Source: Deltaproteobacteria bacterium (lineage in GTDB: Bacteria; UBA10199; GCA-002796325; 1-14-0-20-49-13). Taken from it: a DNA stretch of 39,721 nt. The notes under the pieces were generated by a model. The model was not told the origin of the DNA. It made no database searches and saw nothing but the letters and a program-made list of their open reading frames with translations. Position 1 is the stretch's first letter. Every line of letters starts with the position of its first letter. Both the position numbers and the translations under genes were made by a program. Positions 4,855 through 27,361 of the stretch are shown piece by piece. Location of the stretch: NCBI GenBank assembly GCA_016180865.1, contig JACPAJ010000013.1, positions 1 through 39,721 of the forward strand. The letters run 5' to 3'.

Positions 4855-7611
4855 ATGGCAAAGAAAAAAATGCTTTTGCATGTGATTTTATCGAATGAGC
4901 TGAAATACTTTGTAATAGTTTTTATGGCGTCCACAGCACTTATTTTGCTGGCAATTTCCGATTCCATTAATAAATATGGTAAAGCTTCAAATGAAGCCAC
5001 TATCAAGCAGACAACCGCCGCAATTTTGACATATTTACAGGAAGGCAATTATTACTCTTTAAAACATAACCTTGATCAGTTAACCTCCTCAGAGGTTCTA
5101 AAAAATGCAGTAGTGTTCGATCACCACGGCAAAAAATTTAGTGAAAGCGGAACTAATACAACCACTTTAGGAAAAATCAAAATTGATCAATCGTTGCCTC
5201 AAAAGCCAAACGAACTCAGTTATCAAAAAATCGGCACGCGTGAAATTATAGTTGCACATATTTATGATTCTGAGGGTGTTTTATGGGGTATCTTGGCTGT
5301 GGAAGCCAATAACGCTTTATCGTACTATCTTTTGAAAAATGTCTCTATAATTTTACTGATAAGCGCTGTCTTGCTGCTATTTTTGCATACTATGGTGAGT
5401 TATAAAGTAGTTTCTAAAGCGATTATGCCTTTGCGATTATTGACAAATGAGGTTGATAGCATCTCTACAAGTATACAGAATACCAGTAAAAATGGTTTTC
5501 ATCTTGATAGCAATATGATGACATACATTGAATCTCTATCTTTGAAGCTTAATCAGTTTACTGATGAAAAAGAGGAAATTCAAATTTTGATGTTTTCTTT
5601 CCGCAAATTATTGGAGGTCTTGATTACTTATTGGAGGCTTACCATTCAAAATAAATCCCTTGCCTCCATCGGCTCCTCTACGGCGATGGTGGCGCACGAT
5701 GTAAGAAAGCCTTTGACGAGCATGAAGGCGCTGCTGACGAGCTTGCCTGCGATAAAGGATAATCCGGCGGAACTGAAGAAGATGATATCGGTTGTGGACG
5801 GGAGCATAGTTCATACAAACGCCATGCTGAACGAGATACTGGATTTTTCGCGGGATTCTACGGCTTTGGAATTAAATGAGCACGATCCCGTAGGAGTGAT
5901 AACATCTGCTTTAAGCGATGTGCTTAGGAATCATCCTGGGAGCGATGTTAGAATAGAATATGATTTAAAGCACGCGCACGTGCTGCATGTGGACGGCAAT
6001 CGCATAATCAGAGTGCTTACGAATATAATAGACAACGCTCTAAGCGCGATGACGAACGGAGATGGCAAAGCGGTTGGGAGATTGCGGGTGAGGACGGAAG
6101 AGAAATCAGCAATCAATGCCCCCTCACCCTATCCCTCTCCCTCGAGGGGAGAGGGGAAGGGAGAGGGTGATAATATCATACGGATTATCATCTCCGATTC
6201 CGGACCCGGAATACCTGAAGACGCTTTGCCAAGGCTATTCGATCCATTTTTCACATTTGGGAAGAAGGGCGGCACGGGCTTAGGGCTAGCAATCTGCAAG
6301 AAAGTAATAGATATGCACGGGGGGAAGATAGAGGCGAGGAATGCATGTCATCCTTCAACGACCTGTCATCCCCGTGAAAACGGGGATCCAGAGTGTATGC
6401 ATGAGATTCCTGCTTTCGCAGGAATGACAGAGCACGGCGCTGAATTCATCATCGAGCTTCCGGCCGGCGAAAAAACCGCCGCAATAAACGAGTCAGAGCT
6501 GATAAATGATTCCAGCGAGCTAAAGGCATTTCGCGAAGAGGAGGCTCTGCGGGAGGATAGCGGGGGCGACATAGCCAACACGGCGGAGTTTATGCGAATA
6601 AATAAGGAGCGCGGGCGGTTATCCCGCATGCTGATAGTAGATGACGAGCCTTTGTTCAGAGAAACGATACGATATATGCTCAACGGTTTAGATCAGGTAA
6701 AAGACCATATAAGAGTAGTTGAAGTCGATAGCGCTGAGAAAGGGCTGGAGATGCTGGCTGGAGCAGGAGATCCTTCGGCCGCGCCTCAGGATGACAGGCC
6801 AATTTTTGACTACGTTATAGCCGACATAGATTTAGGCAAGCGGAAGATGAACGGATATGATTTTACGCAGGAGATATTAAAGAAATATCCAAATACATAC
6901 GTGCTGATACATTCAAATAAGCGGAAAGAGGAGCTGGATATAGAGATTCGCGTCATTGCGAGCGCAGCGAAGCAATCTCCCGAACCGAGTTGTATGCGGG
7001 AGATTGCTTCGTCGTCCCTCGATGGCCTCGGGACTCCTCGCAATGACATACAGCCCCGCTTCCTTGGCTTTCTCCCCAAGCCGATGAAGGCATCTGAGTT
7101 ATTGCAGTTTTTGGCTTGCAGGAGCTTTGAGATGGCGCAGCCACATGGCGGTGTCATTGCGAGCCGAGCACTCAATCCTTTGAGTGCTTCGGCGTGGCAA
7201 TCTCCCGAACACAATTGTATGCACGGGATTGCTTCGTCGCCTCCGGCTCCTCGCAATGACAAGAAGAATGTTCTTCTATTGAATGACGATGAAGGATTGA
7301 ATTTCAGCATAGGGATGACGTTGAAATCGCAGAATATGCATGTGACGGATGTAACGAGCGTTAAAGACGCGCTTCAAAAGTTAGCAAAGAACAAGTTTGA
7401 CATGATTATATCCGATATAAACTTGGGCGAAGGTCAGCCGAACGGATATGATTTTTTGAAAGAGGTGCGTAAAACCGAAAGCAGCGTTCCCTTTATCTTC
7501 GCATCCGGCTACAGCAAGGCCGAAGAATGGCCCAAAGCCTCCGCTGCAGGCGCAACCGCTTATCTTCAGCTCCCGATTGACCTAAAAGAAATGGTGGAAG
7601 TTTTTAGTTAA
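4855..7611 (+). CDS. Membrane hybrid sensor histidine kinase (2 TM, HisKA, HATPase, two receiver domains) with in-frame palindromic insertions
   Basis: H-box AHDVRKP, N-box NIIDNA, DSGPGI, FDPFFT, GTGLGL. REC1 LIVDDE...DIDLG...PKP; REC2 LLNDD...DINLG. Confidence 0.93.
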   Translation: MAKKKMLLHVILSNELKYFVIVFMASTALILLAISDSINKYGKASNEATIKQTTAAILTYLQEGNYYSLKHNLDQLTSSEVLKNAVVFDHHGKKFSESGTNTTTLGKIKIDQSLPQKPNELSYQKIGTREIIVAHIYDSEGVLWGILAVEANNALSYYLLKNVSIILLISAVLLLFLHTMVSYKVVSKAIMPLRLLTNEVDSISTSIQNTSKNGFHLDSNMMTYIESLSLKLNQFTDEKEEIQILMFSFRKLLEVLITYWRLTIQNKSLASIGSSTAMVAHDVRKPLTSMKALLTSLPAIKDNPAELKKMISVVDGSIVHTNAMLNEILDFSRDSTALELNEHDPVGVITSALSDVLRNHPGSDVRIEYDLKHAHVLHVDGNRIIRVLTNIIDNALSAMTNGDGKAVGRLRVRTEEKSAINAPSPYPSPSRGEGKGEGDNIIRIIISDSGPGIPEDALPRLFDPFFTFGKKGGTGLGLAICKKVIDMHGGKIEARNACHPSTTCHPRENGDPECMHEIPAFAGMTEHGAEFIIELPAGEKTAAINESELINDSSELKAFREEEALREDSGGDIANTAEFMRINKERGRLSRMLIVDDEPLFRETIRYMLNGLDQVKDHIRVVEVDSAEKGLEMLAGAGDPSAAPQDDRPIFDYVIADIDLGKRKMNGYDFTQEILKKYPNTYVLIHSNKRKEELDIEIRVIASAAKQSPEPSCMREIASSSLDGLGTPRNDIQPRFLGFLPKPMKASELLQFLACRSFEMAQPHGGVIASRALNPLSASAWQSPEHNCMHGIASSPPAPRNDKKNVLLLNDDEGLNFSIGMTLKSQNMHVTDVTSVKDALQKLAKNKFDMIISDINLGEGQPNGYDFLKEVRKTESSVPFIFASGYSKAEEWPKASAAGATAYLQLPIDLKEMVEVFS
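6118..6170. repeat. Palindromic REP/RPE-like element 1 (CCCTCTCCC/GGGAGAGGG type), in frame in the kinase
   Basis: CCCTCTCCC 6133-6141 pairs with GGGAGAGGG 6147-6155. TCACCCT 6124-6130 pairs with AGGGTGA 6164-6170. Encodes APSPYPSPSRGEGKGEG. Confidence 0.85.
6363..6430. repeat. Palindromic REP/RPE-like element 2 (GTCATCCCCG...GGAATGAC type)
   Basis: Terminal inverted repeat CTGTCAT/ATGACAG with internal hairpins ATCCCCG-TGAAAA-CGGGGAT and ATTCCTGC-TTTC-GCAGGAAT. A partial TGTCATCC copy precedes it at 6346. Encodes CHPRENGDPECMHEIPAFAGMT. Confidence 0.9.
6767..6796. repeat. Half palindromic element 3 (GAGATCCTTCG...CTCAGGATGAC type)
   Basis: GAGATCCTTCGGCCGCGCCTCAGGATGACA encodes the insert GDPSAAPQDDR in REC1 and ends in the same ATGAC terminus as the other elements. 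Confidence 0.7.
6952..7047. repeat. Palindromic element 4 (GTCATTGCGAG...CTCGCAATGAC type)
   Basis: 11-bp terminal inverted repeat 6952-6962/7037-7047. Perfect 15-bp inner inverted repeat CGAAGCAATCTCCCG 6968-6982 / CGGGAGATTGCTTCG 6997-7011. Confidence 0.92.
7152..7261. repeat. Palindromic element 5 (same family as element 4) with a nested extra hairpin
   Basis: TGTCATTGCGAG 7152-7163 pairs with CTCGCAATGACA 7250-7261. Nested hairpin GCCGAGCACTCAA-TCCT-TTGAGTGCTTCGGC at 7163-7193. Confidence 0.92.
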
Positions 7612-10946: not shown

Positions 10947-12752
10947 ATGGATAACTTGGAATTTCTTCAAAAAATTGCTGTCAGGCTCCGGATAGATTCT
11001 CTCATGATGACTACGGAAGCGGGTTCCGGGCATCCGACCACATGTCTTTCTGCCGCAGAATTAATAAGCAGTCTCTTTTTTAGCGAGATGAACCTTAATG
11101 AAGATGAATTCATCCTGTCCAAAGGGCATGCTGCGCCGATACTGTGGGCGGCGTATGCCGAAGCAGGTTTAATAGACAGGAATGAATTAAAGGGGCTGAG
11201 AAAGATTACAAGCAGTCTTGAGGGGCATCCAACGCCGCGGATGCCTTTTGTAAAAGTTGCGACAGGTTCATTAGGCCAGGGATTGAGCATTGGAGTTGGA
11301 TTTGCAGCCGGCGCCAAAATGAAAAAAACTAAAAATAAGGTTTATGTTCTTCTCGGCGATGGTGAATGTGCGGAGGGGAGCATTTGGGAGGCGGCAAATT
11401 CGGCGGTTTTTCATAAATTGGATAATCTTTATGCGATAGTTGATGTTAATAGGCTTGGCCAAAGCGGTCCGACGTCGCACGGACACGACATTGAAAGGCA
11501 TGTCGAAAAATTTTCGGCTTTTGGCTGGCATGCGGTTGCCATAGACGGGCATTCAATAGAGGAAATTTTAAAAACGTTTAAAGATTTATCGGGCATTAAA
11601 AAACCCAAAGCGATTCTTGCAAAGACGTTTAAAGGAAACGGAGTTTCGTTTTTAAAGGATAAGGACGGCTGGCATGGAAAGCCCTTGAATCGCGAAGAAC
11701 TGAAACTTGCTCTTGCGGAGCTTGGTGGATATCCAGAAATTAAAAATCTTTCCGATAAAATGGCGGTTTTAAATCAAGCCCATGCTTTAAGATTTAAATT
11801 CTCGCTTCCACCTAAAGAATATCCCTCGGATTCTGAAATTGCGACAAGGGAAGCTTTCGGACACGCGCTATTGGATATCGGAAATTTAAGCGATAAGGCG
11901 GTTGTTATCGATGGAGATGTTAATAATTCAACTGGAACAAATCTTTTTTTTAAAAAATATCCAGAACGGTTTTTTCAATCGTTTATAGCCGAACAAAATA
12001 TGGCTGGCGTTGCTTTAGGCTTTTCAAAGGCGGGATTTTTGCCGTTTGTCGCCACATTTTCCTGTTTTCTTTCACGTGCGCACGATCAGATAAGGATGGC
12101 CGCATGCTCTTCCGCTAACATTAAATTCATTGGCTCACATGCCGGCGTGAGCATTGGCGAAGACGGCCCTTCGCAAATGGGATTGGAGGATCTGGCTATT
12201 TTCAGGCCGATACCGCAATGCGCAATACTTTACCCTGCGGATGCTTATTCAACAAGAGCTTGCACGGAACTTATCGCCAATAGCGCTAACATTTCATACT
12301 TGAGAACAACGAGGCAAAAAACTCCGGTAATTTATGCAATAAATGATAAATTTGAAATTGGAGGTTCCAAAACAGTAAAAAAATCATCCAAAGATTTAGT
12401 GACGATAATTGCGGCGGGCATAACCGTGCATAATGCGATTGCTGCATATGAGGAGCTTAAAAGAGATGGCGTGCTCGTGAGAATTCTAGACGCGTATTCG
12501 GTAAAGCCGATAGATGAAAAAGGCATTAATGCAGCTATTAGCGAAACATCTGACCGCGCAATAATAGTCGAAGACCATTTTGAGGCCGGAGGCTTGGGCG
12601 ATGCGGTTCGTGCGGCGATCAAAGGAGATGCAAAAATAATTCATCTTGCGGTCAGGGAAATTCCGCGTTCGGGAAAACCGGAAGAACTTATGGAAAAATA
12701 TGGGATAGGGAAAGAATCCATCATTAAAGCAGTAAAAGACCTTATATGCTGA
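10947..12752 (+). CDS. tkt: Transketolase
   Basis: AGSGHPT, FILSKGHAAP, LEGHP, TGSLGQG, TPP motif GDGECAEGSIWE, IAEQNM, GEDGPSQM. Confidence 0.96.
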   Translation: MDNLEFLQKIAVRLRIDSLMMTTEAGSGHPTTCLSAAELISSLFFSEMNLNEDEFILSKGHAAPILWAAYAEAGLIDRNELKGLRKITSSLEGHPTPRMPFVKVATGSLGQGLSIGVGFAAGAKMKKTKNKVYVLLGDGECAEGSIWEAANSAVFHKLDNLYAIVDVNRLGQSGPTSHGHDIERHVEKFSAFGWHAVAIDGHSIEEILKTFKDLSGIKKPKAILAKTFKGNGVSFLKDKDGWHGKPLNREELKLALAELGGYPEIKNLSDKMAVLNQAHALRFKFSLPPKEYPSDSEIATREAFGHALLDIGNLSDKAVVIDGDVNNSTGTNLFFKKYPERFFQSFIAEQNMAGVALGFSKAGFLPFVATFSCFLSRAHDQIRMAACSSANIKFIGSHAGVSIGEDGPSQMGLEDLAIFRPIPQCAILYPADAYSTRACTELIANSANISYLRTTRQKTPVIYAINDKFEIGGSKTVKKSSKDLVTIIAAGITVHNAIAAYEELKRDGVLVRILDAYSVKPIDEKGINAAISETSDRAIIVEDHFEAGGLGDAVRAAIKGDAKIIHLAVREIPRSGKPEELMEKYGIGKESIIKAVKDLIC

Positions 12753-14365
12753 ATATTTTATTAAAAAATCAGCTTCTGGTTCTATTAGCCATAATTTTTT
12801 TGGGATATATGCTCGGCAATATCCGCTTCAAGGGGATAGCCGTCGGCAATCCGATGTGCCTCTTTGTCGCGATTGCCGCCGGCGCGCTCGGGGCGGAAAT
12901 TCCCGCTATCATTACAAATTTAGGAATTGTATTTTTTGTTTATTCGGTTGGCCTTCAAGCCGGTCCCCAATTCTTCGCTCTTTTTGGAAAACGCGGGCTT
13001 AAGTTTTCAGCTCTTTCCATATTTACGGTTTGTTTTGGCGCTGCGATAACGCTTTTGCTGGCTTATCTATTGAATGTCAGGCTGGAATCGGCGGTTGGAA
13101 TTTTCGCCGGCGCGGTGACAAGCACGCCGGCTCTTGCTTCGGCAATAAATGCGCTGGAAGCGTATTTCCCTGCGTCAAGCGGCGTTACCTCGCTTGGCTA
13201 TGCTTTTGCCTATCCTTTCGGCCTTGTCAGCCAGCTGATATTCATACAGCTTGCGCCTAAAATATTTGCGGCAAAAATAAATGAAGAAAAGCAATTGGCC
13301 CGGGAAGCGAAACAGAGGCTCGAATTTCATTCGCGCCAGTATCTTCTTACCAACGCAAATTTCGCCGGCAAAAAGATAGAAGAATATGATCTGCATAATT
13401 TTTGCAGAGTCAATCTCAGCCGGTATAAGCACGGAAACGAAATTAAAATATGCGTTCCGGAGTCGGTGTTGAGGTTGGGCGATATTGTCATTGCCGTAGG
13501 CTCCGAGGAAGAGCTCGAAAAATTTAAAGTGCTGTTCGGGGAAGAAGTGAAAACAGAAATGCCGAAGGACTCCAATTTCGAATCAAAAGATATTTATATA
13601 AGCGGGCCAAATGTGATCAATAAAACGCTTCGGGATCTGGCGCTGCCGGAAACGCGGGGGATAACAATAACGAGGCTTTACAGGGGCGATACGATAATAT
13701 CGCCGACCGGACATGTAGTGCTTGAAACAGGAGATCTCATTAGAGTTGTCGGCCAGAAAGAGGATGTTGCGTATTTTGCCGGACAGGCCGGTTCGGAAAA
13801 AAGAAGGCTGGACGACACAAATCTTTTGATTTTGGCGGTTGGCATGTTTGTCGGCGCTCTTATCGGGGAAATTCCGATAGAAATAGGGAGGCTTTCGTTT
13901 AAACTCGGTCTTGCGGGAGGGCCTCTTCTGGCGGCGCTGATTTTAGGGCATTTCGGGCGCGTTGGCAGACAATCGGTTAGAATTCCAAATGCCACGAAAT
14001 TTTTTCTGCGCGAGATAGGCCTTGTTTTCTTTTTAATTGGAGTGGGCGTAAAAACCGGCCATGAACTTGTAATGGCGGCTCATACATACAATGCCTTTGT
14101 GTTCCTTTTTATGGGGGCGGTAATCTCGCTTGTAACGATTTTTGGCTCGATGTTTTTAATTTATAAGGTTTTTAAGACGCCTGTTACGGAATCCCTTGGC
14201 GCGCTTTGCGGCGCCAGAACAAGCAGTTCATCGCTGGGCGTATTGATAAAAACGCTGGATGACGAGTCCCCGAGCATAACTTATGCGGCCGCTTATCCCG
14301 TTGCCATAATTGCTCTTACGCTTATGGGGCAGATTATGGTCTGGGTTGGAATGATTTTTCTTTGA
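12746..14365 (+). CDS. AspT/YidE/YbjL family antiporter with two TrkA-C domains
   Basis: FVYSVGLQAGP, AGAVTSTPALA, GYAFAYPFG, LGLAGGPL, YAAAYP, with duplicated membrane halves. Confidence 0.92.
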   Translation: MLNILLKNQLLVLLAIIFLGYMLGNIRFKGIAVGNPMCLFVAIAAGALGAEIPAIITNLGIVFFVYSVGLQAGPQFFALFGKRGLKFSALSIFTVCFGAAITLLLAYLLNVRLESAVGIFAGAVTSTPALASAINALEAYFPASSGVTSLGYAFAYPFGLVSQLIFIQLAPKIFAAKINEEKQLAREAKQRLEFHSRQYLLTNANFAGKKIEEYDLHNFCRVNLSRYKHGNEIKICVPESVLRLGDIVIAVGSEEELEKFKVLFGEEVKTEMPKDSNFESKDIYISGPNVINKTLRDLALPETRGITITRLYRGDTIISPTGHVVLETGDLIRVVGQKEDVAYFAGQAGSEKRRLDDTNLLILAVGMFVGALIGEIPIEIGRLSFKLGLAGGPLLAALILGHFGRVGRQSVRIPNATKFFLREIGLVFFLIGVGVKTGHELVMAAHTYNAFVFLFMGAVISLVTIFGSMFLIYKVFKTPVTESLGALCGARTSSSSLGVLIKTLDDESPSITYAAAYPVAIIALTLMGQIMVWVGMIFL

Positions 14366-14399: not shown

Positions 14400-16073
14400 A
14401 TGACAAAAGCACTGGAAGAAATTCTTTTAAGCGAAGGCTTGATCACAAAAGACAGGCTTGCTGTGGCAAAAGAATCTTTGAAAAATCTAGGCGGAACACT
14501 GGATCAGGTTTTAATCGAAAAAGGATTCTTAACCGAAGAGCAGATTTTAAAGGCCCTTGCCAAAAGAATGAACACTATTTTTGTAACGCTTTCCAAATAT
14601 AAAATCGATCCGGCGGCAGTAAGGCTTTTGAACGTTTCGCTGGCCAGAAAACACCGCGCGATACCGATTTTCAAGATAGAGGATAAAGTGACAGTCGCCA
14701 TATCGAACCCTCTTAATGTTTCGGCTCTTGATGACATTCGCGATGCAATCGGACATGAAATCAATCCTGTGCTAGCTCTGGATGCCGACATTGAAAAAGC
14801 GATAAAAGAATTCTACCGGGGCACAGGTTTAACGGAAGAGGGGGCGGTGGCAAAAGTGGAGGTGATAGGGTTTGAAGATAGAAGCGAAGAGTCAGTCTCA
14901 ATTGAAAAAATAGCGAAAGCGGCCAGCGGGGAGCAGATTGTTACGGCGGTAAATAATATAATAGCTCAGGCCGCGGCCGACCGCTCGAGCGATATTCATT
15001 TTGAGCCTGTGCGCGACGCCTTAAAAATCAGATTCAGAATCGACGGCGTTTTAGAGGATTTTTCCAGCCTCCCCAAAAAAATGCACATGCCGACCGTCTC
15101 CCGAATTAAAATTATGGGCGGGATGGATGTTGCGGAACACCGAATTCCGCAGGACGGCCGCGTGAGAGTCAGAACGCAGGGGCGCGAAATAGACATGCGC
15201 ATTGCGACATATCCGACGGTATTCGGAGAGGCGGCAACGGTCAGGCTTTTAGGCAAAGAAGAACTTTTAACTCTTGAAGATATAGGATTTTGCAAAAACG
15301 ATCTTAATGTTTTTATACAGCTTATAACCAAACCGCATGGAATTCTGCTTGTTACGGGGCCCACAGGCAGCGGCAAAACAACGACGCTATATGCGTCCCT
15401 TATGCATGTGAATTCAAGGGACAAGCATATTCTTTCAATTGAAGATCCGGTTGAAAACGAAATTCCGGGCATTGATCAGCAGCAGATAAATCCGAAAGCG
15501 GGCCTTACATTCGCCTCGGCCTTAAGATCGATGCTAAGACAGGATCCGGATATAATAATGGTCGGAGAAATCAGGGATAAAGAGACCGCGGATATGGCGA
15601 TCCGCGCTTCCATGACCGGCCATTTTGTTTTTTCAACGCTCCACACAAATACAGCCATAGGCGTCATACCGCGCCTTTTAGACCTTGGCGTGGAATCGTA
15701 TCTTCTTTCATCAACGCTGCTTGGCGCCATATCGCAGCGGCTTGTGAGAAAAATCTGCCCAAAGTGCAAAGAGGAAGCCGAGATCCCGCGCGAGCTTGCT
15801 GTGGGGCTCGGAGTTAAAAGCATAAAATCATTCAAGGGCAAAGGCTGCAAAGAATGCCGCAATACCGGATATTTCGGACGCACGGCGATTTTTGAAATTA
15901 TCCAGACAGATGATGATTTAAAAAAGATGATCAGCGAAAAAATGCCGGAAGTAAGGATTATGGAAGCCGTTAAAGATAAAGGGTATCATTCTATTCTCGA
16001 TGACGGACTGGAAAAAATTAAGAACGGCATAACAACCGTGGAAGAAGTCCTTAAAGTCACCGAAAGTTTGTAA
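14400..16073 (+). CDS. pilB: Type IV pilus/T2SS assembly ATPase (PilB/GspE/MshE family)
   Basis: SDIHFEP, RFRIDG, PQDGR, GPTGSGKTTTLY, LRQDPDIIMVGEIRD, STLHTN and CPKC/CKEC zinc motif. Confidence 0.95.
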   Translation: MTKALEEILLSEGLITKDRLAVAKESLKNLGGTLDQVLIEKGFLTEEQILKALAKRMNTIFVTLSKYKIDPAAVRLLNVSLARKHRAIPIFKIEDKVTVAISNPLNVSALDDIRDAIGHEINPVLALDADIEKAIKEFYRGTGLTEEGAVAKVEVIGFEDRSEESVSIEKIAKAASGEQIVTAVNNIIAQAAADRSSDIHFEPVRDALKIRFRIDGVLEDFSSLPKKMHMPTVSRIKIMGGMDVAEHRIPQDGRVRVRTQGREIDMRIATYPTVFGEAATVRLLGKEELLTLEDIGFCKNDLNVFIQLITKPHGILLVTGPTGSGKTTTLYASLMHVNSRDKHILSIEDPVENEIPGIDQQQINPKAGLTFASALRSMLRQDPDIIMVGEIRDKETADMAIRASMTGHFVFSTLHTNTAIGVIPRLLDLGVESYLLSSTLLGAISQRLVRKICPKCKEEAEIPRELAVGLGVKSIKSFKGKGCKECRNTGYFGRTAIFEIIQTDDDLKKMISEKMPEVRIMEAVKDKGYHSILDDGLEKIKNGITTVEEVLKVTESL

Positions 16074-16078
16074 AGTTT

Positions 16079-17298
16079 ATGCCCGTATTTTTATACAAGT
16101 CGCGCGATTCAAAAGGGACGCTCGTTTCAGGTGAAATGGAGGCCGCAAACGCCGACGATGTGAGAAGAAACCTTTCGGAAAAGGGGCTTCTTCCGACCCG
16201 TATCGAGCCAAAGGGCTTGTCGATATCCATCCCGCAATTTTTCAGGCAAAGATCAAAGGGAAAAGTCCGCGATCTAATAGCGCTAACGCGCCAGTTTTAT
16301 GCTCTGTTTAAGGCCGGCGTTAACATGGATAGAATTCTTTTCACCCTTGCGCGCCAAAGCGAAAATTCAAGATTGAGAATCGCTCTTGAAGAGATAAGAC
16401 GCGATGTTTCCAAAGGATCGGGCCTGGCAGCTGCTTTTGGAAAGCATCCGGATATTTTTAATGAATTATACGTAAATATGCTGAGCGTCGGCGAGACCGG
16501 AGGCGTATTGGAGCAGTCGCTTTTAAAACTGGTGGAAATTTTAAAAAAAGAACATAAACTTATCACAAGCGTTAAATCGGCCACTCTCTACCCAAAGATC
16601 GTCATTGTAGTGTTCTTTATGGTTGTGGCTTTAATGATTGTTTTTGTAATTCCGCGGTTTGCCGACTTTTACGCGGGATTTAAAGCGGAGCTTCCTTTGC
16701 CGACGCGGATTTTAATTGCCGTTAGCGATTTTGTGTCGGCGTACTGGTATTTTTTTCTGGCCGGAATTGCTTTCGGAACTGTTTTTGTAAGAAGGCTGAA
16801 AAATACATCGAAAGGAAATATTTTTTTCGATCGCCTTAGATTTAAAATTCCGGTCTTTGGAAAACTTCACCAGCTTGTTATCAATGCAAGGTTCGGCCAC
16901 CTTGTGGCGGCGATGTATAAAAGCGGTTTGCCGCTTGCAACGGCTTTGGATATAGTCGGCAGAACGATCGGCAATAAAGTTTTCCAGAAAGAGATCGAAG
17001 GCTTGAATGACGATGTTTCAAAGGGCTCTTCCTTGTCGGCTTCCATGGAGGCAAAGCCGTACTTCACGTTTCTAATGACTGAAACAACCGCTGTTGGCGA
17101 ACAGACGGGGTCTCTCGATGAAATGATGGAGACGACCGCGCAATTTTATGATGAAGAAATAGATGCCATGCTCGTCAATTGGTAACGCTTATTGAACCGA
17201 TGCTGCTTGTAGCGATATTTGGCCTTGTGGCACTGCTTGCGCTTGCCATATTTTTGCCGTGGTGGAACGTCACAAGGCTTATTTTACAGGGAGGATAA
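16079..17298 (+). pseudogene. pilC: PilC/GspF/MshG platform protein, frameshifted near 17180 (possible sequencing error)
   Basis: The ORF ends ...DAMLVNW* at 17185, but the family C-terminus VTLIEPMLLVAIFGLVALLALAIFLPWWNVTRLILQGG* continues in another frame to 17298. One added T (AAT TTG GTA) restores the gene. Confidence 0.9.
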
Positions 17299-17337
17299 AA
17301 TAATCTTTTGATGTCAAGGCACTTTTTTTTGACATAA

Positions 17338-17724
17338 TTGGGCTTATATATTATTGTTGTGAATAAAATAAGGCGTTATAAAAATGATTGGATTGTAATT
17401 GCCGGAATTTTATTGGTATTATCCTCAATTTATGGCACAATGATTTACGAACAAAGGATGAGGCTTCATGAAGAAGCGCTGATAAGCGAATTACGATCTT
17501 TGAGAATTGCGGTGGCAGCTTTTCATATTATTAACGGGAGAAATCCGAGGGATTTTAACGAGCTTTCGGCGGCGGTTATGAAAACAGCCGACAATAAAGA
17601 ACGCAGATTTCTTCCTTCAAATATTATAAAAAGAGATTTCATGGATGTGTTTGGCAACCCGTACGTTTATGATCCTTCGATTGGATGGGTTAGATGCACA
17701 ACGTCGGATTATAGTGATTGGTGA
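17338..17724 (+). CDS. Pilin-like membrane protein with a GspG-like C-terminus; paralog of 18278..18637 (start uncertain)
   Basis: One N-terminal TM, then ELRSLR...NPRDF...DVFGNPYVYDPSIGWV...YSDW. Confidence 0.75.
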   Translation: MGLYIIVVNKIRRYKNDWIVIAGILLVLSSIYGTMIYEQRMRLHEEALISELRSLRIAVAAFHIINGRNPRDFNELSAAVMKTADNKERRFLPSNIIKRDFMDVFGNPYVYDPSIGWVRCTTSDYSDW

Positions 17725-17763
17725 TTTAAGTGCGAAGGCTGATAGTATTAAAGTAAACAAATA

Positions 17764-17829
17764 GCCCGCCACTAAACCATTGGCGGGCGTAAGAACGCCT
17801 AAACTCATCGGAATTCGCTAAGGCGTTCT
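17764..17829 (+). promoter_or_regulatory. Tandem hairpins in the leader of the major pilin gene
   Basis: GCCCGCCA 17764-71 pairs with TGGCGGGC 17781-88, and AGAACGCCT 17792-800 pairs with AGGCGTTCT 17821-29. Both lie just 5' of the GGAGGA RBS. Confidence 0.5.
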
Positions 17830-17843
17830 AACGGAGGATAATT

Positions 17844-18266
17844 ATGCGAAGAGAAAAAGGTTTTACATTAATTGAACTTGTGCTTGTCATTGCCGTACTG
17901 GGGGTTTTGGCCGTGTCGGCGCTGCCCAACCTTTTCGATATTTCATTGACGAACGCCAGAAATAATGCGCGAGACGGCGTAGTCGGCGCAGTTCAGGCCG
18001 GTCTTTCACTTTACGGAGCCAACCAAATTTCTCAAGGGAACACCGAATCGTATCCGACATTGCTTGAAACAAGCGATTTGGCCGATGGAACGGCTTCCAG
18101 CCGCACGAATCCGCTTTTCAATAATATCCTGCAGGGCGGCGTAACGCGCGATTGGACAAAAAAGAACGATACCTGTTACACCTATACCGGAGGAGGAGCG
18201 ACGGATGATTATCAGTATACCGCCGGAACGACGGGCACGTTTGTATTTGCCAGCGGCGGATGCTAA
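17844..18266 (+). CDS. Type IV major pilin, MshA-like
   Basis: Class III signal KG|FTLIELVLVIAVLG, ALP...NAR...GVVGAV as in MSHA pilins, two C-terminal Cys, strong RBS. Confidence 0.92.
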   Translation: MRREKGFTLIELVLVIAVLGVLAVSALPNLFDISLTNARNNARDGVVGAVQAGLSLYGANQISQGNTESYPTLLETSDLADGTASSRTNPLFNNILQGGVTRDWTKKNDTCYTYTGGGATDDYQYTAGTTGTFVFASGGC

Positions 18267-18277
18267 ACGAGGTGTTT

Positions 18278-18637
18278 ATGAAGAGATCCAAAATTGAAAT
18301 TTTTGCCGTTGTTGCGGTTGTAATCTTGGCAGTCGGAATTTTCGGCGTTAAATCATTTTTAATAAATAAGGCCGAAAAAGAGAATGCGCTCATGGCTGAA
18401 CTCAAGTCTTTGCGGACATCGGTTCAAATTTATCTTGTGCTGAATAAGAGCTATCCATCGGACCTGAAAAGCCTTGCCGGCCAAAAATTCGTTCTCGGCA
18501 ATAAAGAAGAATCCTACGTTAAGGGCATTAAACTTGATAGAGATGGATATCCGATAGATGTTTTCGGCCAAAAGTTTGATTATAACCCAAGAACGGGCTG
18601 GGTAAATTCTTCAGTAAAAAGATATTCAGAATGGTAA
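18278..18637 (+). CDS. Pilin-like membrane protein; paralog of 17338..17724
   Basis: GAGGTG RBS before ATG 18278, TM, then ELKSLR...YPSDL...DVFGQKFDYNPRTGWV...YSEW. Confidence 0.8.
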   Translation: MKRSKIEIFAVVAVVILAVGIFGVKSFLINKAEKENALMAELKSLRTSVQIYLVLNKSYPSDLKSLAGQKFVLGNKEESYVKGIKLDRDGYPIDVFGQKFDYNPRTGWVNSSVKRYSEW

Positions 18638-19095
18638 AAGCTTTAAAGGGTTTTACCCTTATTGAAACGCTTTTAGTGATCGCTATTCTGGGAATTTTGT
18701 CTATAGCGCTCGTTACGCGCATATTTAATTATAAAAGATCCTATATTGAAGTAACGTCAAAGAAAGCCGCGAGCGATATTGAATATGCCAGAAGCCTTGC
18801 GATGATGAAACAGGGGACGACTTACGGGGTTTTTTTCGATGACGCCAATGATCGATATACGGTTTATGCAACAAGCACTGCAACTCCCGTTGCGGACCCC
18901 CAAACGAAGCAAAATCTTATTGAAACATTTTCAAGATGGCCCGGAGTTACGATTACCGGAGGCAATTTTACTGTTGAATTCAATCAATGGGGGTCTCCTA
19001 CGACAGGCGGCGGCGGAAGCGTGACGCTTACCGACGGCACAAACTCAAAGACGGTCACCATTACGGCAGGCACGGGGAAGGTGAGTGTGCAATAA
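18631..19095 (+). CDS. Minor pilin (FimU/GspH/MshC-like)
   Basis: KG|FTLIETLLV, DIEYARSLAM, VEFNQWGSP, TGKV. Confidence 0.9.
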   Translation: MVKALKGFTLIETLLVIAILGILSIALVTRIFNYKRSYIEVTSKKAASDIEYARSLAMMKQGTTYGVFFDDANDRYTVYATSTATPVADPQTKQNLIETFSRWPGVTITGGNFTVEFNQWGSPTTGGGGSVTLTDGTNSKTVTITAGTGKVSVQ

Positions 19096-19529
19096 TGTTC
19101 AAGCAACAAGCAACTAGCAAGGGTGTGACGTTGATCGAGGCAGTTCTAATGATCGGCATTGTCGGGGCCGGTCTCATTGGAATAGCTTATACAATGTTCG
19201 GCGGCCCCAAATCCGCTCTGATAGCCGACCAGACAGTTGTTGCAGCCCATTTGGCCCGTGAAAAGATGGAACAGATCCTTGCGGACAGGGCAAATAACGG
19301 TTACGCAACGACAATTGCCACAAGTTATTCCGATGGCGCATTAACCGGCAATTACAGCATTTATACGAGAAACGTTACGATTACGGAAGTTGATTCAGAT
19401 GCTGACGGCGGCAGCGACGATTTTCTGGATGCTTTAGCCGGTTCAGGATACGCCAGAGTAACTACGACTGTAACATGGAACAGCGGAAACAACACCGTAA
19501 AAGAGGAGATGCTGATTGCAAATTATTAG
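19095..19529 (+). CDS. Minor pilin (PilV/GspI/MshD-like)
   Basis: The true start is ATG 19095 (TAATG overlap). KG|VTLIEAV, AAHLAREKMEQI, RVTTTVTW. Confidence 0.88.
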   Translation: MFKQQATSKGVTLIEAVLMIGIVGAGLIGIAYTMFGGPKSALIADQTVVAAHLAREKMEQILADRANNGYATTIATSYSDGALTGNYSIYTRNVTITEVDSDADGGSDDFLDALAGSGYARVTTTVTWNSGNNTVKEEMLIANY

Positions 19530-20034
19530 AGCCCATTTGCGGCGCGGCGGATTTACGCTTGTAGAACTTGTTTTGTCTATTGCTATCATTGCGATTCTTG
19601 CTGCAAGCGTCGGGCCGATTTTAACGACAAGTTTCAGAGGCTATGATCTTGTTGCAAAAAGACGGATAGCGCTGGCCCAAATCAGAATAGCGCTGGACAG
19701 AATGTGCGGTGAAATTGCTCTTATTCCGGACACAGCCAATATTGTCACATTTACCTCTACAAATTTCACATTTAATATTCCGAGCGAAAGCAATGTTGCA
19801 TATACAACAAGCGGAAGCACTCTTACACGTAGCGGCGTGAATCTGGCCGATAATGTAACTTCGCTCGCATTTACTTATCTTGATTCGGCCGGCAATTCAA
19901 CGGCGACAAAGGCAAATATAAAAAGGATAAAAGTTGAAGCGTCGGTTACAGCAGGTGCCGGCATGGGAACGTTAAATATAAGGGATCAAGTTTTTCCGCG
20001 GAGGTTTGCAAGCGCTTATGCAGGGTATCAGTAA
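19516..20034 (+). CDS. Minor pilin (PilW/GspJ/MshO-like)
   Basis: GG|FTLVELVLSIAII, ALDRMCGEI, LADNVTSLAFTYLD. Confidence 0.9.
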   Translation: MQIIRAHLRRGGFTLVELVLSIAIIAILAASVGPILTTSFRGYDLVAKRRIALAQIRIALDRMCGEIALIPDTANIVTFTSTNFTFNIPSESNVAYTTSGSTLTRSGVNLADNVTSLAFTYLDSAGNSTATKANIKRIKVEASVTAGAGMGTLNIRDQVFPRRFASAYAGYQ

Positions 20035-22270
20035 ATATAAGGGCCAAAACGGAGTAACCGTCATCGCAGCGCTTGTTGCGGTATTTTTCATCGGCGCTGT
20101 CGGCGCGGGAATGGCATATTTTGTCGCGTCCAATCAGCAGACCCGGATACAGCAGGTGACGCGCGATCAGGCTCTTTATTCAAACATGGCCGGGATGGAA
20201 TTTGCGCTGCGCCAGATTATGGTCAGCGGCTCGCAGGCAACTTCTATCACGCGGAAATTTGTCGGCGAAACCATAACAATAACTCGCTCAAGCGGAGCGA
20301 TAAACGTTTCAACGGCAAAAAAGGACGCGTTTTCTTCTCATTCGATCACAGACCCGAATCCCCCGAATCTTGCAAATTGCCTTGTTATAAATACCGCTGC
20401 CGCCGCCGTAACCGACCAGAATCCTGGAGATAAGCACAGGCTTACCGGCATAACTCTAAGCCGCGATGCGAGCTGCACGGATGCGCTTACAATCAACTCC
20501 ATGAGCACAACTACATGGGCGCCCGATAACGGAGAGCTTTTAAATGCGATTGAAATTGCCGGTTCGCCGACCGAATTCAGCGGCCCGGCGGCGGGAAGCG
20601 GCGGAACGTTTGATTTCGGTTCGAATGATTATGCTATTAATGATGCCGCAACGCATAATCTCACATATGTCCAGTGGAATTCCGACATGAGCGGCCACAA
20701 TTTCCATCTTGTTTTTAACTTTACGATAAATGCCCAGACTTTCAGCAAATCGGCCGATGTCAATTTTTTGGCCGCGAATCAGGCCGGATGTTTCAGCTGG
20801 ACTACGACAAGCGCAAGGCTTTCATTTACTTCCAACGCGTGGCGCGATCTTATAAACACAAGCATTGCAAACTCCTGCGCGCAGCCGATAAGGCTTGATA
20901 AGATGACAGTTTCATGGACTCCGACAACGCCTTCGCGAAATCTTACGAATGTCCAGCTCAACGGCGGCTCGGAAGAGTTCACCGGTACGGCCGCAAGCGG
21001 AGTTCAAATTGAAGTCGATGATCTTATATCGGCATCTTCGTCTCAAACTGTCAATTATTTCAGATTTGACGGCGATATGCTGGGGCGGAATTATAGCGTT
21101 GTTTGGACATTTGCCGACGGAACGTCAACGACGCTATCTTTAAATCTTTTTAATGCAAATGAAAATAATTGTTTAACAATTAATACCGCCAATGTCGCGG
21201 TTTCCGGAAATGATGTTACCGGGCTTACCGTCCAAAATATCTGCAGCGCCGATATAGGAATGACTTCGGCAACGATGACGTGGAGCGGAGGGCCGGCAAA
21301 TTTCACGGCTATTTCAATCGACGATGTTGACGGCACAAATACCTATTCCGGAACTTTTGCAAGCGGCGCGGCGCTTGATTTTGCAACTGTAGATGCCGTT
21401 GACGGCAATCTGTATTATCCGGACGGAAGCGGAGTGAAAAATATAAATTCGCTTAGTTTCAGCTCCACTCCCGCCGGAACAACGTTTACTATTACGTTTA
21501 CAATGGCCGACGGTACGACTAAAGCCGCTACATTTACGCCTCAAACGCAGGCAAATTGTTTGAGCGTGAATATGCTCGGCAGTTCGCTTACAAACGGCAG
21601 CAAAGACCTTAGCGGGATAACAACTACCAATAATTGCAGCTTTCCAATCACATGGGCGCAGACAACGGTCACTACATCTTCGACGCGCAATTTGACGCAG
21701 ATAGTTGCCGATGGCGTAACTATTTTCAGCGGTAGCGCTGGCAGCGGCGTAACGGTCGACAACACGGATGTTGTTTATTCAGCATCGCAAACTGTTTCAA
21801 TCGACAGATTCAGGTTCAGCGGGAGCGTGGCCAATCGCGTCATAACGATAGATTTCATAATGGGAGATGGCTCGACTCAAACGGCTGAATTTTCAGAAAA
21901 ATTCTGCCTTGTGCCGAATACATCTGCAGCCACAATCGGCGGCACGGGAGGCGTCGATCTTTTGGGAATTACGATTAATAACCAATGCACCGCGCGTTCG
22001 ATCATTTGGATCACCACGGTTGCCAGTTGGACGCCGACGTCGCCTACAAGAAATTTAACGTCGATAGTCGTTGACGGTTCGTCTGTTTTCAGCGGTTCGA
22101 TGGCATCCGGCGGCACAACGAATAATTCCAACGTTACGCTGACAGCCGGTCAAACAAGGGCAATTACAAGATTTCGCTTCAGCGGAGATATGACCGGCAG
22201 AACGTTTACAATCACATTTAATATGCAGGACACATCGAGCGACACAACGCCGTCTTTCACGCCGCCGTAA
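20006..22270 (+). CDS. Large minor pilin (PilX/GspK/MshP-like N-terminus) fused to five Cys-paired beta-rich repeats; putative tip adhesin
   Basis: NG|VTVIAALV without E5, QALYSNMAGMEFALRQ, then Thr/Ser-rich repeats beginning ANCLVINT, AGCFSWTT, NNCLTINT, ANCLSVNM and KFCLVPNT. Confidence 0.85.
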   Translation: MQALMQGISKYKGQNGVTVIAALVAVFFIGAVGAGMAYFVASNQQTRIQQVTRDQALYSNMAGMEFALRQIMVSGSQATSITRKFVGETITITRSSGAINVSTAKKDAFSSHSITDPNPPNLANCLVINTAAAAVTDQNPGDKHRLTGITLSRDASCTDALTINSMSTTTWAPDNGELLNAIEIAGSPTEFSGPAAGSGGTFDFGSNDYAINDAATHNLTYVQWNSDMSGHNFHLVFNFTINAQTFSKSADVNFLAANQAGCFSWTTTSARLSFTSNAWRDLINTSIANSCAQPIRLDKMTVSWTPTTPSRNLTNVQLNGGSEEFTGTAASGVQIEVDDLISASSSQTVNYFRFDGDMLGRNYSVVWTFADGTSTTLSLNLFNANENNCLTINTANVAVSGNDVTGLTVQNICSADIGMTSATMTWSGGPANFTAISIDDVDGTNTYSGTFASGAALDFATVDAVDGNLYYPDGSGVKNINSLSFSSTPAGTTFTITFTMADGTTKAATFTPQTQANCLSVNMLGSSLTNGSKDLSGITTTNNCSFPITWAQTTVTTSSTRNLTQIVADGVTIFSGSAGSGVTVDNTDVVYSASQTVSIDRFRFSGSVANRVITIDFIMGDGSTQTAEFSEKFCLVPNTSAATIGGTGGVDLLGITINNQCTARSIIWITTVASWTPTSPTRNLTSIVVDGSSVFSGSMASGGTTNNSNVTLTAGQTRAITRFRFSGDMTGRTFTITFNMQDTSSDTTPSFTPP

Positions 22271-22285
22271 GAGGCCGAAAGATAG

Positions 22286-22314
22286 TTGAATTTATTGAGC
22301 ATGAATGCTATCAT
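22286..22314 (+). promoter_or_regulatory. Putative sigma-70 promoter with extended -10
   Basis: TTGAAT-N17-TATCAT with TG at -15/-14, 9 nt before ATG 22324. Confidence 0.55.
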
Positions 22315-22323
22315 TAACGACAT

Positions 22324-23868
22324 ATGAAACAACGAGTGAAACGCAAGCCGGCATCAGAAAAACTTAAAAAACCGATCGCCAAGGATAAAGATATAACCGT
22401 CCTTAATCAGACTTTATTGAATACCATCCCCTTTCCAATGGATATTGTGGACGATACAGGAACGATTCTTTACATGAGCGAATTAATGCAAAAAATGGCT
22501 GGTAAAAATGGCGCCGGCAAAAAATGCTGGCTGCTTTACAGGGATGATAAAGTCAGGTGTCCCGCATGCCCTCTTGAAACGGGAATAACCGTCGGAGAAA
22601 CGAAAACCATAGATGTGGGAAGCTGCTTTGGAGGAAAGCAGATGGAGGTTACTCACACCGGGATGATCTATAAAAGCAAAAAAGTGATTCTTGAAATTTT
22701 TTACGATATAACCGAAAGAAAAAAAGCCGATGAAGTTTTGAAAAATATCAGGGAAAAACTTGAAGAGAAAAATTTTGAATTAAAGCGGCTAAATGAAGTC
22801 AAATCCGAATTTGTGGCGACAGTTTCGCATGAGCTCAGAACTCCTTTGGCTTCGATCAAAGAAGCCATTTCGCTTATTTTGGACGGAGTGTCAGGGGAAA
22901 CTAACGAAAAACAGCGCAACTTTTTAAGCATCGCCAACAGAAATATCGACCGGCTTACCGGTTTAATCAACAATCTTCTCGATATTTCTAAAATCGAAAC
23001 CGGCAAGCTCAAGCTTTATAAAACGAATTTTTTGATGATGGATGTTATAAAAGAGGTTATCGATTCATTCAAACATCTTGCAGAGAATAAGAGAATTAAC
23101 CTGCGGCTGATCGAGAAAACCGACCTTCCGTCTGTATATGCGGACAAAGACAAGATAACGCAGATAATTATCAATCTCCTTTCAAATGCTTTAAAATTCA
23201 CGCCTGAAGGCGGTTTTGTGGAAGTTTCGACAGATTATACAAAATCGGATAAGGAATTCGTTGAAGTTGAAGTTAAAGATTCCGGAATGGGCATCGCCGA
23301 AGATGACATGCCAAAGCTTTTCCATAAATTCCAGCAGATCGACGGATCGATAACCCGCAAAATCGGCGGAACGGGCCTGGGGCTGGCCATCTCAAGGGAA
23401 ATTATCGAAATGCACGAAGGCAGAATCTGGGCGGCGTCTGAACTGGGCAAGGGGAGCCGCTTTGGGTTCATTCTGCCGGTTATTCCAATGGGGAAGATTA
23501 AAGTCGATAAAAAGAGGATTTTGATAATTGACGATGACCCCGATCTTTGCGAAACTCTAAAAACAAGGCTTGAAGCCAATGAATTTATCGTATTTACGGC
23601 TTTAAACGGGATGGACGGAATTGAACTGGCAAAGAAAAACAGGCCGAATCTTATTATTTTGGATTTAATGATGCCGGAAATGGATGGTTTTCAAGTTTGC
23701 CAGTCATTAATGAAAGACAGCCAGACATCTTCCATCCCCGTGGTGGTGTTGACTGTCCTTGATCAGGAGGAGGCAATACGAAAAGCCTTGTGTAAAGGCG
23801 CGGTAGGATATATGATTAAGCCATACGATTCCGAATCGCTGCTGGAAACAGTCAGGGAGTTTTTATGA
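22324..23868 (+). CDS. Hybrid histidine kinase (Cys-containing PAS, HisKA, HATPase, receiver)
   Basis: GKKCW...CPACP PAS motif, VSHELRTPL, NLLSNALKFT, GGTGLGL, ILIIDDD...DLMMPEMDG. Confidence 0.95.
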   Translation: MKQRVKRKPASEKLKKPIAKDKDITVLNQTLLNTIPFPMDIVDDTGTILYMSELMQKMAGKNGAGKKCWLLYRDDKVRCPACPLETGITVGETKTIDVGSCFGGKQMEVTHTGMIYKSKKVILEIFYDITERKKADEVLKNIREKLEEKNFELKRLNEVKSEFVATVSHELRTPLASIKEAISLILDGVSGETNEKQRNFLSIANRNIDRLTGLINNLLDISKIETGKLKLYKTNFLMMDVIKEVIDSFKHLAENKRINLRLIEKTDLPSVYADKDKITQIIINLLSNALKFTPEGGFVEVSTDYTKSDKEFVEVEVKDSGMGIAEDDMPKLFHKFQQIDGSITRKIGGTGLGLAISREIIEMHEGRIWAASELGKGSRFGFILPVIPMGKIKVDKKRILIIDDDPDLCETLKTRLEANEFIVFTALNGMDGIELAKKNRPNLIILDLMMPEMDGFQVCQSLMKDSQTSSIPVVVLTVLDQEEAIRKALCKGAVGYMIKPYDSESLLETVREFL

Positions 23869-24230
23869 CAAAAAAAATATTGATTGTGGATGACGAGAAG
23901 GATCTGGTTGAAACCCTTTCCTTCAGGCTGGAAGCCGCCGGTTATGCTATTATCACCGCTTTTGACGGGAAAGAAGGTCTGGAAAAAGCGCGTTCCGAAA
24001 AGCCGGATATCGTGCTTTTGGACATCATGATGCCCAAGATGGATGGCTATCAGGTTTGCAGGATGTTGAAATTCGATGACGAATATAAGCATATGCCGAT
24101 AATCATGCTTACCGCGCGGGGGCAGGAGCAGGATAAAAAGACGGGAGAAAACGTCGGAGCGGACGATTACGTCACAAAACCTTTTGACAGCGGGGACCTT
24201 CTCACGCGCATTAAAAAGCTTTTAAAATGA
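23865..24230 (+). CDS. Single-domain response regulator
   Basis: ILIVDDE, DIMMPKMDG, MLTA, DYVTKPF. Confidence 0.95.
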   Translation: MTKKILIVDDEKDLVETLSFRLEAAGYAIITAFDGKEGLEKARSEKPDIVLLDIMMPKMDGYQVCRMLKFDDEYKHMPIIMLTARGQEQDKKTGENVGADDYVTKPFDSGDLLTRIKKLLK

Positions 24231-24613
24231 AGTACGAAATTTTAATAGCGGACGATGATCGCGACTTTGTCACGGTTCTGAAGGAGCGTCTTGAATCAAG
24301 CGGCTTTATAACAGATTGCGCCTACGAAGGCGTCAGGACTATCGAGCTGGCCCATAAGAAAAAACCCGATTTGATTTTGCTGGACTGGAAAATGCCCGCA
24401 GGCGGCGCATCTACGGTTTTACAGTATTTGAAGGAGAAGCCGGAAACGAAAAACATCCCCGTTATTGTTATTACCGGAGTCGCCGATAATTTTTTGGAGT
24501 CTAAAGCGGCGTCATTGGGGGCCAAATATTTTATACGAAAACCGTACGATCCTCATCTGCTCATCGACACAATAAACGAAATCCTGGCTTTAAGAACCGA
24601 AAAATCAAAATAG
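24227..24613 (+). CDS. Single-domain response regulator
   Basis: ILIADDD, LDWKMPAG, VITG, FIRKPY. Confidence 0.93.
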   Translation: MKYEILIADDDRDFVTVLKERLESSGFITDCAYEGVRTIELAHKKKPDLILLDWKMPAGGASTVLQYLKEKPETKNIPVIVITGVADNFLESKAASLGAKYFIRKPYDPHLLIDTINEILALRTEKSK

Positions 24614-24659
24614 ATATTTTTCTTTAACATTTCATAAAGTTATGCTACTTTCATGACTT

Positions 24660-25535: not shown

Positions 25536-25550
25536 AAATCAGGGGGATAA

Positions 25551-26336: not shown

Positions 26337-26338
26337 TT

Positions 26339-27346: not shown

Positions 27347-27361
27347 TTCGGCGCAAATTTT

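Follow-up and report, generated by a model that had tools for sequence, protein, structure and literature searches.

How can a single bacterial gene take up several short repeats and still read through as one protein, and where do such repeats come from? The question is raised by a hybrid sensor histidine kinase gene in the window, i.e., the whole stretch of 39,721 nucleotides (nt) analyzed here (contig JACPAJ010000013.1), in which an earlier note had marked five palindromic elements (here E1 to E5) of four types, lying in frame in the kinase coding sequence. We consider it highly probable that the five are in-frame insertions of Ssn-type hairpin repeats, similar to the Rickettsia palindromic elements (RPEs), which have survived in permissive loops of the protein. 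This reading is carried by the repeats themselves, their absence from homologs, a correct assembly, the loop positions that the inserts take in a structural model, the spread of the same families into conserved genes, and the association of one family with a small GIY-YIG gene. The genome (G000), to which the window belongs as contig C129, comprises 1.77 Mb in 153 contigs, with a G+C content of 45% and an estimated completeness of 84%.

The kinase protein carries the Pfam domains HisKA (residues 276-333), HATPase_c (380-536) and two copies of Response_reg, the set that identifies a hybrid sensor histidine kinase. The HATPase_c match spreads 107 profile positions across 157 residues, which already hints at added material. 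For comparison, we used the paralog on contig C41 of the same genome, which is 59% identical to the kinase across the main aligned segment and 48% over the whole length, together with the orthologs of genomes G001, G002 and G013 and 26 further homologs from public proteins. The latter were drawn from 30 homologs with E values of 1e-119 or better; P0006, P0018, P0026 and P0028 were omitted, comprising a near-duplicate, two proteins with other sensor domains and one partial sequence. The H, N, G1, F and G2 boxes of the kinase and the receiver aspartates are all conserved. In alignments with the paralog, the orthologs and the 26 homologs, H281, N390/N394, G450/G452, G473-L478, D596/D597, D659 and K742 fall in invariant or near-invariant columns, those of the phospho-acceptors H281 and D659 being invariant. 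In receiver 2, a glutamine (Q) replaces the usual lysine and is invariant throughout the homolog family, so that it represents a family trait.

Palindromy of the inserts was judged in two ways, i.e., from a listing of inverted repeats and from single-stranded DNA (ssDNA) folds, each compared with 200 dinucleotide shuffles. By these measures the earlier description of five palindromes holds for E1, E2, E4 and E5, with fold z scores of -3.2, -6.2, -6.4 and -8.3, respectively, and 0/200 shuffles as good in each case, but not for E3, which shows no palindromy beyond chance (z +0.26, with 110/200 shuffles folding as well). The sequence of E3 is instead the right half of a GTCATYCTGAG...CCTCAGGATGAC element, designated type D. 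E1 contains an inverted repeat at 6121-6167 with 21-nt arms. E2 consists of two separate hairpins between GTCAT and ATGAC, with an inverted repeat at 6363-6430, and just upstream of these hairpins lies an 18-nt duplicated partial terminus (6346-6363, with TGTCATCC at 6346-6353); with this terminus included, E2 spans 84 nt, or 28 codons. In E4 and E5, a closed outer stem, GTCATTGCGAG/CTCGCAATGAC, encloses a conserved inner hairpin, CGAAGCAATCTCC...GGAGATTGCTTCG, and one or two variable side hairpins. In E4, the outer stem is 11 nt long, the inner stem CGAAGCAATCTCCCG/CGGGAGATTGCTTCG has 15-nt arms, and a side hairpin is present. Most of the borders first drawn were retained, the exceptions being E2, which starts 18 nt further left, at 6346, and E3, whose insertion spans 6763-6798 (Table 1). 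The division into four types was upheld, and three of these types, i.e., those of E2, E3 and E4/E5, are built to a common grammar, GTC-[AT...AT hairpin]-short loop-[AT...AT hairpin]-GAC, which is that of two inverted hairpin units.

Table 1. Coordinates of the kinase gene, its five inserts and the overlapping open reading frame, numbered from the first letter of the window.
Feature	Position	Strand	Description
Hybrid sensor histidine kinase gene	4855..7611	+	918 aa, frame intact
E1, type C	6118..6170	+	G+C-rich palindrome CCCTCACCC..CCCTCGAGGGG..GGGTGA; read as APSPYPSPSRGEGKGEGD
E2, type B	6346..6430	+	Two hairpins, GTCATCCCCGTGAAAACGGGGATC and ATTCCTGCTTTCGCAGGAATGAC; read as CHPSTTCHPRENGDPECMHEIPAFAGMT
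E3, type D right half	6763..6798	+	36 nt, 12 codons; GGAGATCCTTCG..CCTCAGGATGAC
E4, type A	6952..7047	+	96 nt; read as VIAS..PRND
E5, type A	7152..7261	+	110 nt; long first side hairpin CCGAGCACTCAATCCTTTGAGTGCTTCGG; 12-nt outer arms
Shadow open reading frame	6810..7310	-	166 aa, no gene; opposite the kinase gene; could be mis-called

That these stretches are insertions is indicated by the empty sites that the earlier note had proposed to look for. The paralog and the G001, G002 and G013 orthologs show alignment gaps opposite all five stretches. Most of the 26 further homologs are also gapped at the insert sites, with E3 missing in 26/26. An AlphaFold2 model built from a 27-sequence alignment (mean predicted local distance difference test score, pLDDT, 74) places all five inserts as coil between secondary-structure elements. 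The segments with pLDDT below 50 coincide with E1 (residues 421-437), E2 (501-506 and 510-525), E4 (708-731) and E5 (764-801), and E3 lies in a block with a pLDDT of about 56. The alignment and the model agree with the positions originally assigned relative to the conserved motifs. Within the ATPase domain, E1 falls between the N box and G1, in one beta-hairpin turn, and E2 follows G2 in the other; in receiver 1, E3 lies in the alpha2-beta3 loop and E4 in the alpha4-beta5 loop; and E5 lies in the linker that joins the two receivers. In the CheY fold, alpha-to-beta loops are found on the face opposite the phosphorylation site. The inserts are predicted by the model to occupy disordered surface loops.

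A gene with so heavy a load, i.e., five insertions, in a genome that also holds a paralog without these inserts, might be a dead or dying pseudogene whose frame has stayed open by chance, and the Q in place of the usual lysine in receiver 2 could be taken as a sign of decay. We regard this as very improbable. The frame, which the earlier note had described as preserved by the elements, runs open for 918 codons through all five insertions, the catalytic motifs are all intact, and the Q in question is shared by all homologs. Moreover, inserts of the same kind are carried by the essential single-copy genes for leucyl-tRNA synthetase (LeuRS), cysteinyl-tRNA synthetase (CysRS) and CarB.

An assembler might also have spliced abundant community repeats into the kinase gene. 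The stretch was found in six groundwater metagenome runs from two studies, with no RNA run listed among them, and Logan contigs from four of these (X1-X4), all of one study and one possibly the source of the window itself, were used to check the assembly. Summed contig depth at the elements reached up to 12692 in run X1, compared with approximately 40-60 in the flanks, and at the type A spots (6952-7015 and 7208-7271) it was 100-300 times that of the flanks in runs X1-X4; unitigs break at the element borders. Such depth indicates that the repeats, type A in particular, are very abundant across the groundwater community, and it is also what an assembly artefact would have going for it. Against this, the contigs of the four runs tile 5859-7531 with 0 differing letters and cross the borders exactly. 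E1 is bridged by X1 (5988-6276) and X2 (5800-6302), E3 by X3 (6721-6910), and E4 by X1 (6952-7181) and X2 (6950-7087), and the junctions of E2 and E5 are crossed. Misassembly, which the earlier note had named as grounds for abandoning the finding, did not materialize in these contigs. In addition, the contig of a close relative has 24 nt in place of the 60 nt at 6744-6805 and is therefore 12 codons (36 nt) shorter exactly at E3. The reading frame is preserved at 5/5 sites, and elements are present in the same loops on a contig of an unrelated metagenome. We therefore consider an artefact extremely unlikely.

The kinase elements belong to families that are dispersed through the genome. Pairs of GTCAT...ATGAC with 11-nt complementary arms occur 53 times in the genome, compared with 1-4 times in shuffles, and an nhmmer profile search identified 160 loci, i.e., 68 of type A, 56 of type B and 36 of type C. 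Within the window, the same search detected no type A, B or C copies other than those inside the kinase gene, in agreement with the earlier observation that the window holds no further copies; the many others lie elsewhere in the genome. A copy was counted as in frame when 40 aa or more of open frame lay to either side of it, and 1500 random intervals served as a control. In-frame loci amounted to 24/68 for type A, 24/56 for type B and 30/36 for type C, with 1038/1500 for the random intervals. Type C, a G+C-rich palindrome read as PSP...GEG, is without GTCAT termini and is mostly coding. Altogether, 78 in-frame copies are distributed across 60 open reading frames (ORFs) with a median length of 407 aa, 14 of which contain two or more. 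The kinase gene tops the genome with four copies plus E3, followed by the MetH gene (C33:1144-3915, - strand, locus L227), with three type A elements in frame, and by a LeuRS fragment on contig C151, with three type C elements. Pfam domains were found in 19/20 host ORFs tested, and the hosts include MetH, LeuRS, CysRS, CarA, CarB, UvrB, a Mur ligase, squalene-hopene cyclase, ferrochelatase, tRNA-guanine transglycosylase (TGT) and urocanase.

Further properties of the families bear on how they are read and how they may insert. One frame of the right terminus contains TGA, and the peptides encoded within ORFs end in ...RND/GND or ...AMT, the other two frames. Most type A copies are preceded by T and followed by A, with no further conserved target sequence, and target-site duplications of 2-5 nt were seen in 0-2/37 type A and 0/13 type B copies. 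The side arms of type A vary (54/57 distinct) and have a mean energy of -7.8 kcal/mol, compared with -2.8 kcal/mol in shuffles. A check of whether excision of loci outside ORFs would restore a long frame flagged 13 type A and five type B loci; with 81 boundary offsets allowed and no control, we base no conclusion on it. Searches of Rfam gave no family that fits, the element matches all being sub-threshold hairpins with none near a gathering score.

Type A extends far beyond this genome. In contigs representing one genome per species, at least 125 places carry the exact type A pattern. Among the matches listed, the phyla include Proteobacteria, Chloroflexota, Bacteroidota, Planctomycetota, Patescibacteria, Omnitrophota and others, and 20/117 classifiable copies lie in open frames. 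The pattern is present in 13/41 relatives, including all five genomes of the family, each with its own loop variants; in one relative (G004), 5/20 sampled type A copies lie in long open frames. An exact type A element was also seen on a contig labelled as belonging to a metagenome-assembled genome (MAG) of a Halobacteria archaeon (locus L064), which could reflect either binning contamination or cross-domain occurrence.

The number of insertions in the kinase gene led the earlier note to suggest an insertion hotspot. The cluster is the densest in the genome, at least four loci per 1150 nt being reached in 2% of 2000 permutations in which the 160 loci were placed at random (P=0.02), and the same loops are occupied by other elements in two homologs. 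In the paralog (C41:24435-24530; L013:2436-2531), a different 96-nt palindrome, TGCGATGGT...ACCATCGCA (z -3.0), lies at the E2 loop; elsewhere in the genome it has only short partial matches. In the DNA of homolog P0002, which comes from another metagenome, the E1 loop holds a full GTCATTCTGAG...CCTCAGGATGAC element (type D) plus an extra half, the E2 loop a full type D element and the E4 loop a full type A element. To judge from peptide signatures, the E2, E4 and E5 loops of other homologs may be filled by type A, type B or D-like inserts. An extra peptide at the E1 loop of the G001 ortholog was considered and not counted as an element (z -1.5, 17/200 shuffles).

These recurrences are what would be expected of a targeted hotspot, in which the elements integrate preferentially, e.g., into hairpin-prone DNA or an older resident element, and in which clustering reflects insertion bias and not only survival. 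The duplicated partial terminus at E2 and the one and a half elements at the E1 site of P0002 suggest insertion beside an existing element. However, apart from the T at -1 and the A at +1 there is no conserved target sequence, the four other histidine kinase genes of the window are without copies, and clusters of at least three loci arise by chance in half of the permutations. Selection would also spare insertions in exactly such loops, far from the active sites, and selection for permissive loops explains the clustering as well as targeted insertion does. Nor is the kinase gene special in kind, given the 78 copies in 60 ORFs. We therefore think a targeted hotspot rather unlikely, and retain insertion followed by survival in permissive loops as the preferred reading.

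A further alternative is that the peptides or hairpins are retained for a function, as new docking loops on the kinase or as RNA structures that adjust translation or the decay of mRNA. The frequency of type C in ORFs, above that of random intervals, would fit such a use, as would the type A side arms, which differ in sequence yet stay hairpins. Hairpin upkeep is, however, equally expected of an element that moves as folded ssDNA. The inserts are, furthermore, predicted to be disordered and are missing in most homologs, and members of the same families lie in intergenic DNA as well as in unrelated housekeeping enzymes. Adaptive use of the inserts consequently appears improbable to us.

A candidate for the origin of the elements came from the literature on Ssn nucleases. 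A 2025 paper (PMC11893778) describes hairpin repeats beside small GIY-YIG Ssn ssDNA nucleases. It sets out the NTS hairpin of Neisseria together with a degenerate Ssn-related motif (SRM), the latter flanking small GIY-YIG genes in many bacteria, places the repeats around genes and assigns them a role in limiting transformation. The terms 'in-frame' and 'intragenic' were not found in the main text of that paper, whose supplements give SRM counts per genome that may bear on the Rickettsia link. The published SRM pattern matches the left half of E2 (6364-6391) and has 34 matches in the genome, compared with 5-6 in shuffles; 25/34 fall in type B loci. The genome holds two small GIY-YIG genes, on contigs C12 and C58. 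On C12, a type A left half, a 96-aa GIY-YIG ORF and a type A right half follow one another, and the encoded protein has a Pfam GIY-YIG match of 56 bits. Among the best 80 of at least 571 relatives of this protein, which are 58-69% identical and come from many phyla, 72 loci had full flanks, and 58/72 carried GTCATTGCGAG (with at most one mismatch) on both sides. Given the C12 layout and these homologous loci, type A represents a GIY-YIG cassette without its gene.

On contig C70, a type A copy of 148 nt contains a long A+T-rich center, the right end of which resembles the C12 spacer beside the gene start. Judged by eye without alignment, this copy looks like an internal-deletion intermediate.

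The elements share several features with the NTS/dRS3 hairpins and the SRM. Their hairpin units start with GTCAT and end in ...ATC, those of type B have halves similar to the NTS consensus, type A shows the order hairpin, small GIY-YIG gene, inverted hairpin, and the distribution over phyla is very wide. In contrast, the units here are mostly inverted doublets with nested extra hairpins, about half are inside coding sequence, and the type A and type D halves lie outside the published degenerate pattern.

On the favored reading, small non-coding hairpin repeats have spread through the genome, and five copies, E3 being a half copy, have landed in the kinase gene without breaking its frame. The type of E4 and E5 lacks the gene of a cassette whose 96-aa single-domain GIY-YIG nuclease gene lies between the same halves, which is the layout published for the Ssn nucleases and SRM (PMC11893778). 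The GIY-YIG nuclease, or another host function, would move the elements by way of single-stranded hairpin DNA. The inserts would survive because they contain no stops in the frame used and add whole codons, and because the turns and linkers in which they sit are removed from the sites of catalysis and phosphorylation; there they would be read as disordered peptides.

Several points weigh against this account. What has been demonstrated for the Ssn nucleases is cleavage of ssDNA, not transposition (PMC11893778). Of the 34 SRM matches, none falls in a type A locus, and the type A and D halves (E3, E4 and E5) do not fit the pattern, which makes no room for the nested extra hairpin that they carry. 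The small GIY-YIG protein of C12, a candidate member of the Ssn nuclease family in CDD (cd10448), had no NCBIfam or PDB sequence match; searches of the same two collections with the genome's small GIY-YIG proteins gave no matches. No element was seen beside the C58 GIY-YIG gene within approximately 230-300 nt on each side, as viewed by eye without a repeat search, and no GIY-YIG gene was found to accompany types B, C or D in a genome that is 84% complete, nor, for type C, any mobilizer or partner gene. The excess of type C in ORFs over the random rate (30/36 versus 1038/1500) is not what pure selfish insertion predicts. Finally, the open frame and the intact motifs are the only features that suggest that the inserts are translated and the kinase active. 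Even with these points counted, in-frame insertion of Ssn-type repeats into permissive loops remains the highly probable reading.

The closest precedent is that of the RPEs (Ogata et al., 2000, 2002), as related in a review (PMC10969869). According to this review, nearly half of the 44 RPE insertions reported in R. conorii can form translational fusions, and in-frame selfish DNA in proteins is regarded as a peculiarity of Rickettsia. The analogy, already drawn in the earlier note, is borne out in that both systems comprise dispersed palindromic repeats of approximately 50-150 nt, many of them in frame in unrelated conserved genes where they add fold-compatible peptides, and in that each genome holds several families with a comparable share in ORFs. 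In-frame occurrence, which characterizes RPEs, is seen here in 78 copies in 60 ORFs, with Pfam domains in 19/20 tested hosts. The host, however, is not Rickettsia: its habitat is groundwater, and the best named matches of one window protein are Omnitrophota MAGs, at 45-46% identity. The families here have GTCAT termini (RPEs being compared by description, not by consensus sequence), five insertions lie in one gene, and one family is a gene-less GIY-YIG cassette, a link for which no RPE counterpart was found in the literature searched. The kind of event is the same as for RPEs; the host and the families are new. Our literature searches returned no description of in-frame palindromes outside Rickettsia or in Omnitrophota, or of GIY-YIG genes with protein-coding palindromes, and string searches with the element termini and peptides returned, save for the Ssn paper, chance primer matches only.

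Two other classes of repeat invite comparison. As in the system of REPINs and REP-associated tyrosine transposases (RAYTs), the elements occur as doublets, short palindromes in inverted order that together make a long hairpin; they lack target-site duplications and leave singlet remnants. A RAYT was rejected as the mobilizer of types A-C, given that each of the five RAYT-like genes in the genome lies at least 7 kb from the nearest copy. One of the five, on contig C29 (locus L144), is above the cut-off of the NCBIfam REP_Tyr_transpos model (86.8 bits), and it is flanked by TAAGTGTCCGACACTTA palindrome doublets at 12563-12615 and 13378-13429; TAAGTGTCCGACACTTA 12-mers occur 48 times, both strands counted. 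This layout is a classical REP-RAYT arrangement, separate from the kinase elements. [quoted passage not shown] They differ from the present elements, which showed no target-site duplications and for which a DDE transposase parent was not identified.

Two features of the window lie outside the argument. The shadow ORF opposite the kinase gene (Table 1) is presumably kept open by E4 and E5, which read through in reverse without meeting a stop. A long same-strand cluster at 14400-30198 resembles a type IV pilus or type II secretion machine, with a PilB-like ATPase, a PilC-like protein, several prepilins, PilM, PilN and a secretin; a hybrid kinase and two single-domain receivers are interleaved in it.

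In-frame insertion of the Rickettsia kind is now seen in a distant, uncultured groundwater lineage, with several families at once, and it has hit essential enzymes as well as a signaling protein. We put forward tentatively, as a possibility, that Ssn-type cassettes and their gene-less doublets are a pan-bacterial source of translated palindromes, of which RPEs would be one local case; integration through ssDNA hairpins, with a preference for sites within or next to earlier copies, would then make certain protein loops, those of this kinase family included, recurrent landing pads at which peptide segments are gained and swapped. Recognition of such repeats helps annotation, since they create shadow ORFs, lengthen proteins, break metagenome assemblies and seed spurious families. 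The tie of type A to a small GIY-YIG gene across many phyla offers a concrete candidate for the origin and movement of the elements, and it widens the role of the recently described Ssn repeats beyond that of intergenic signals, to that of a force by which protein loops are reshaped.

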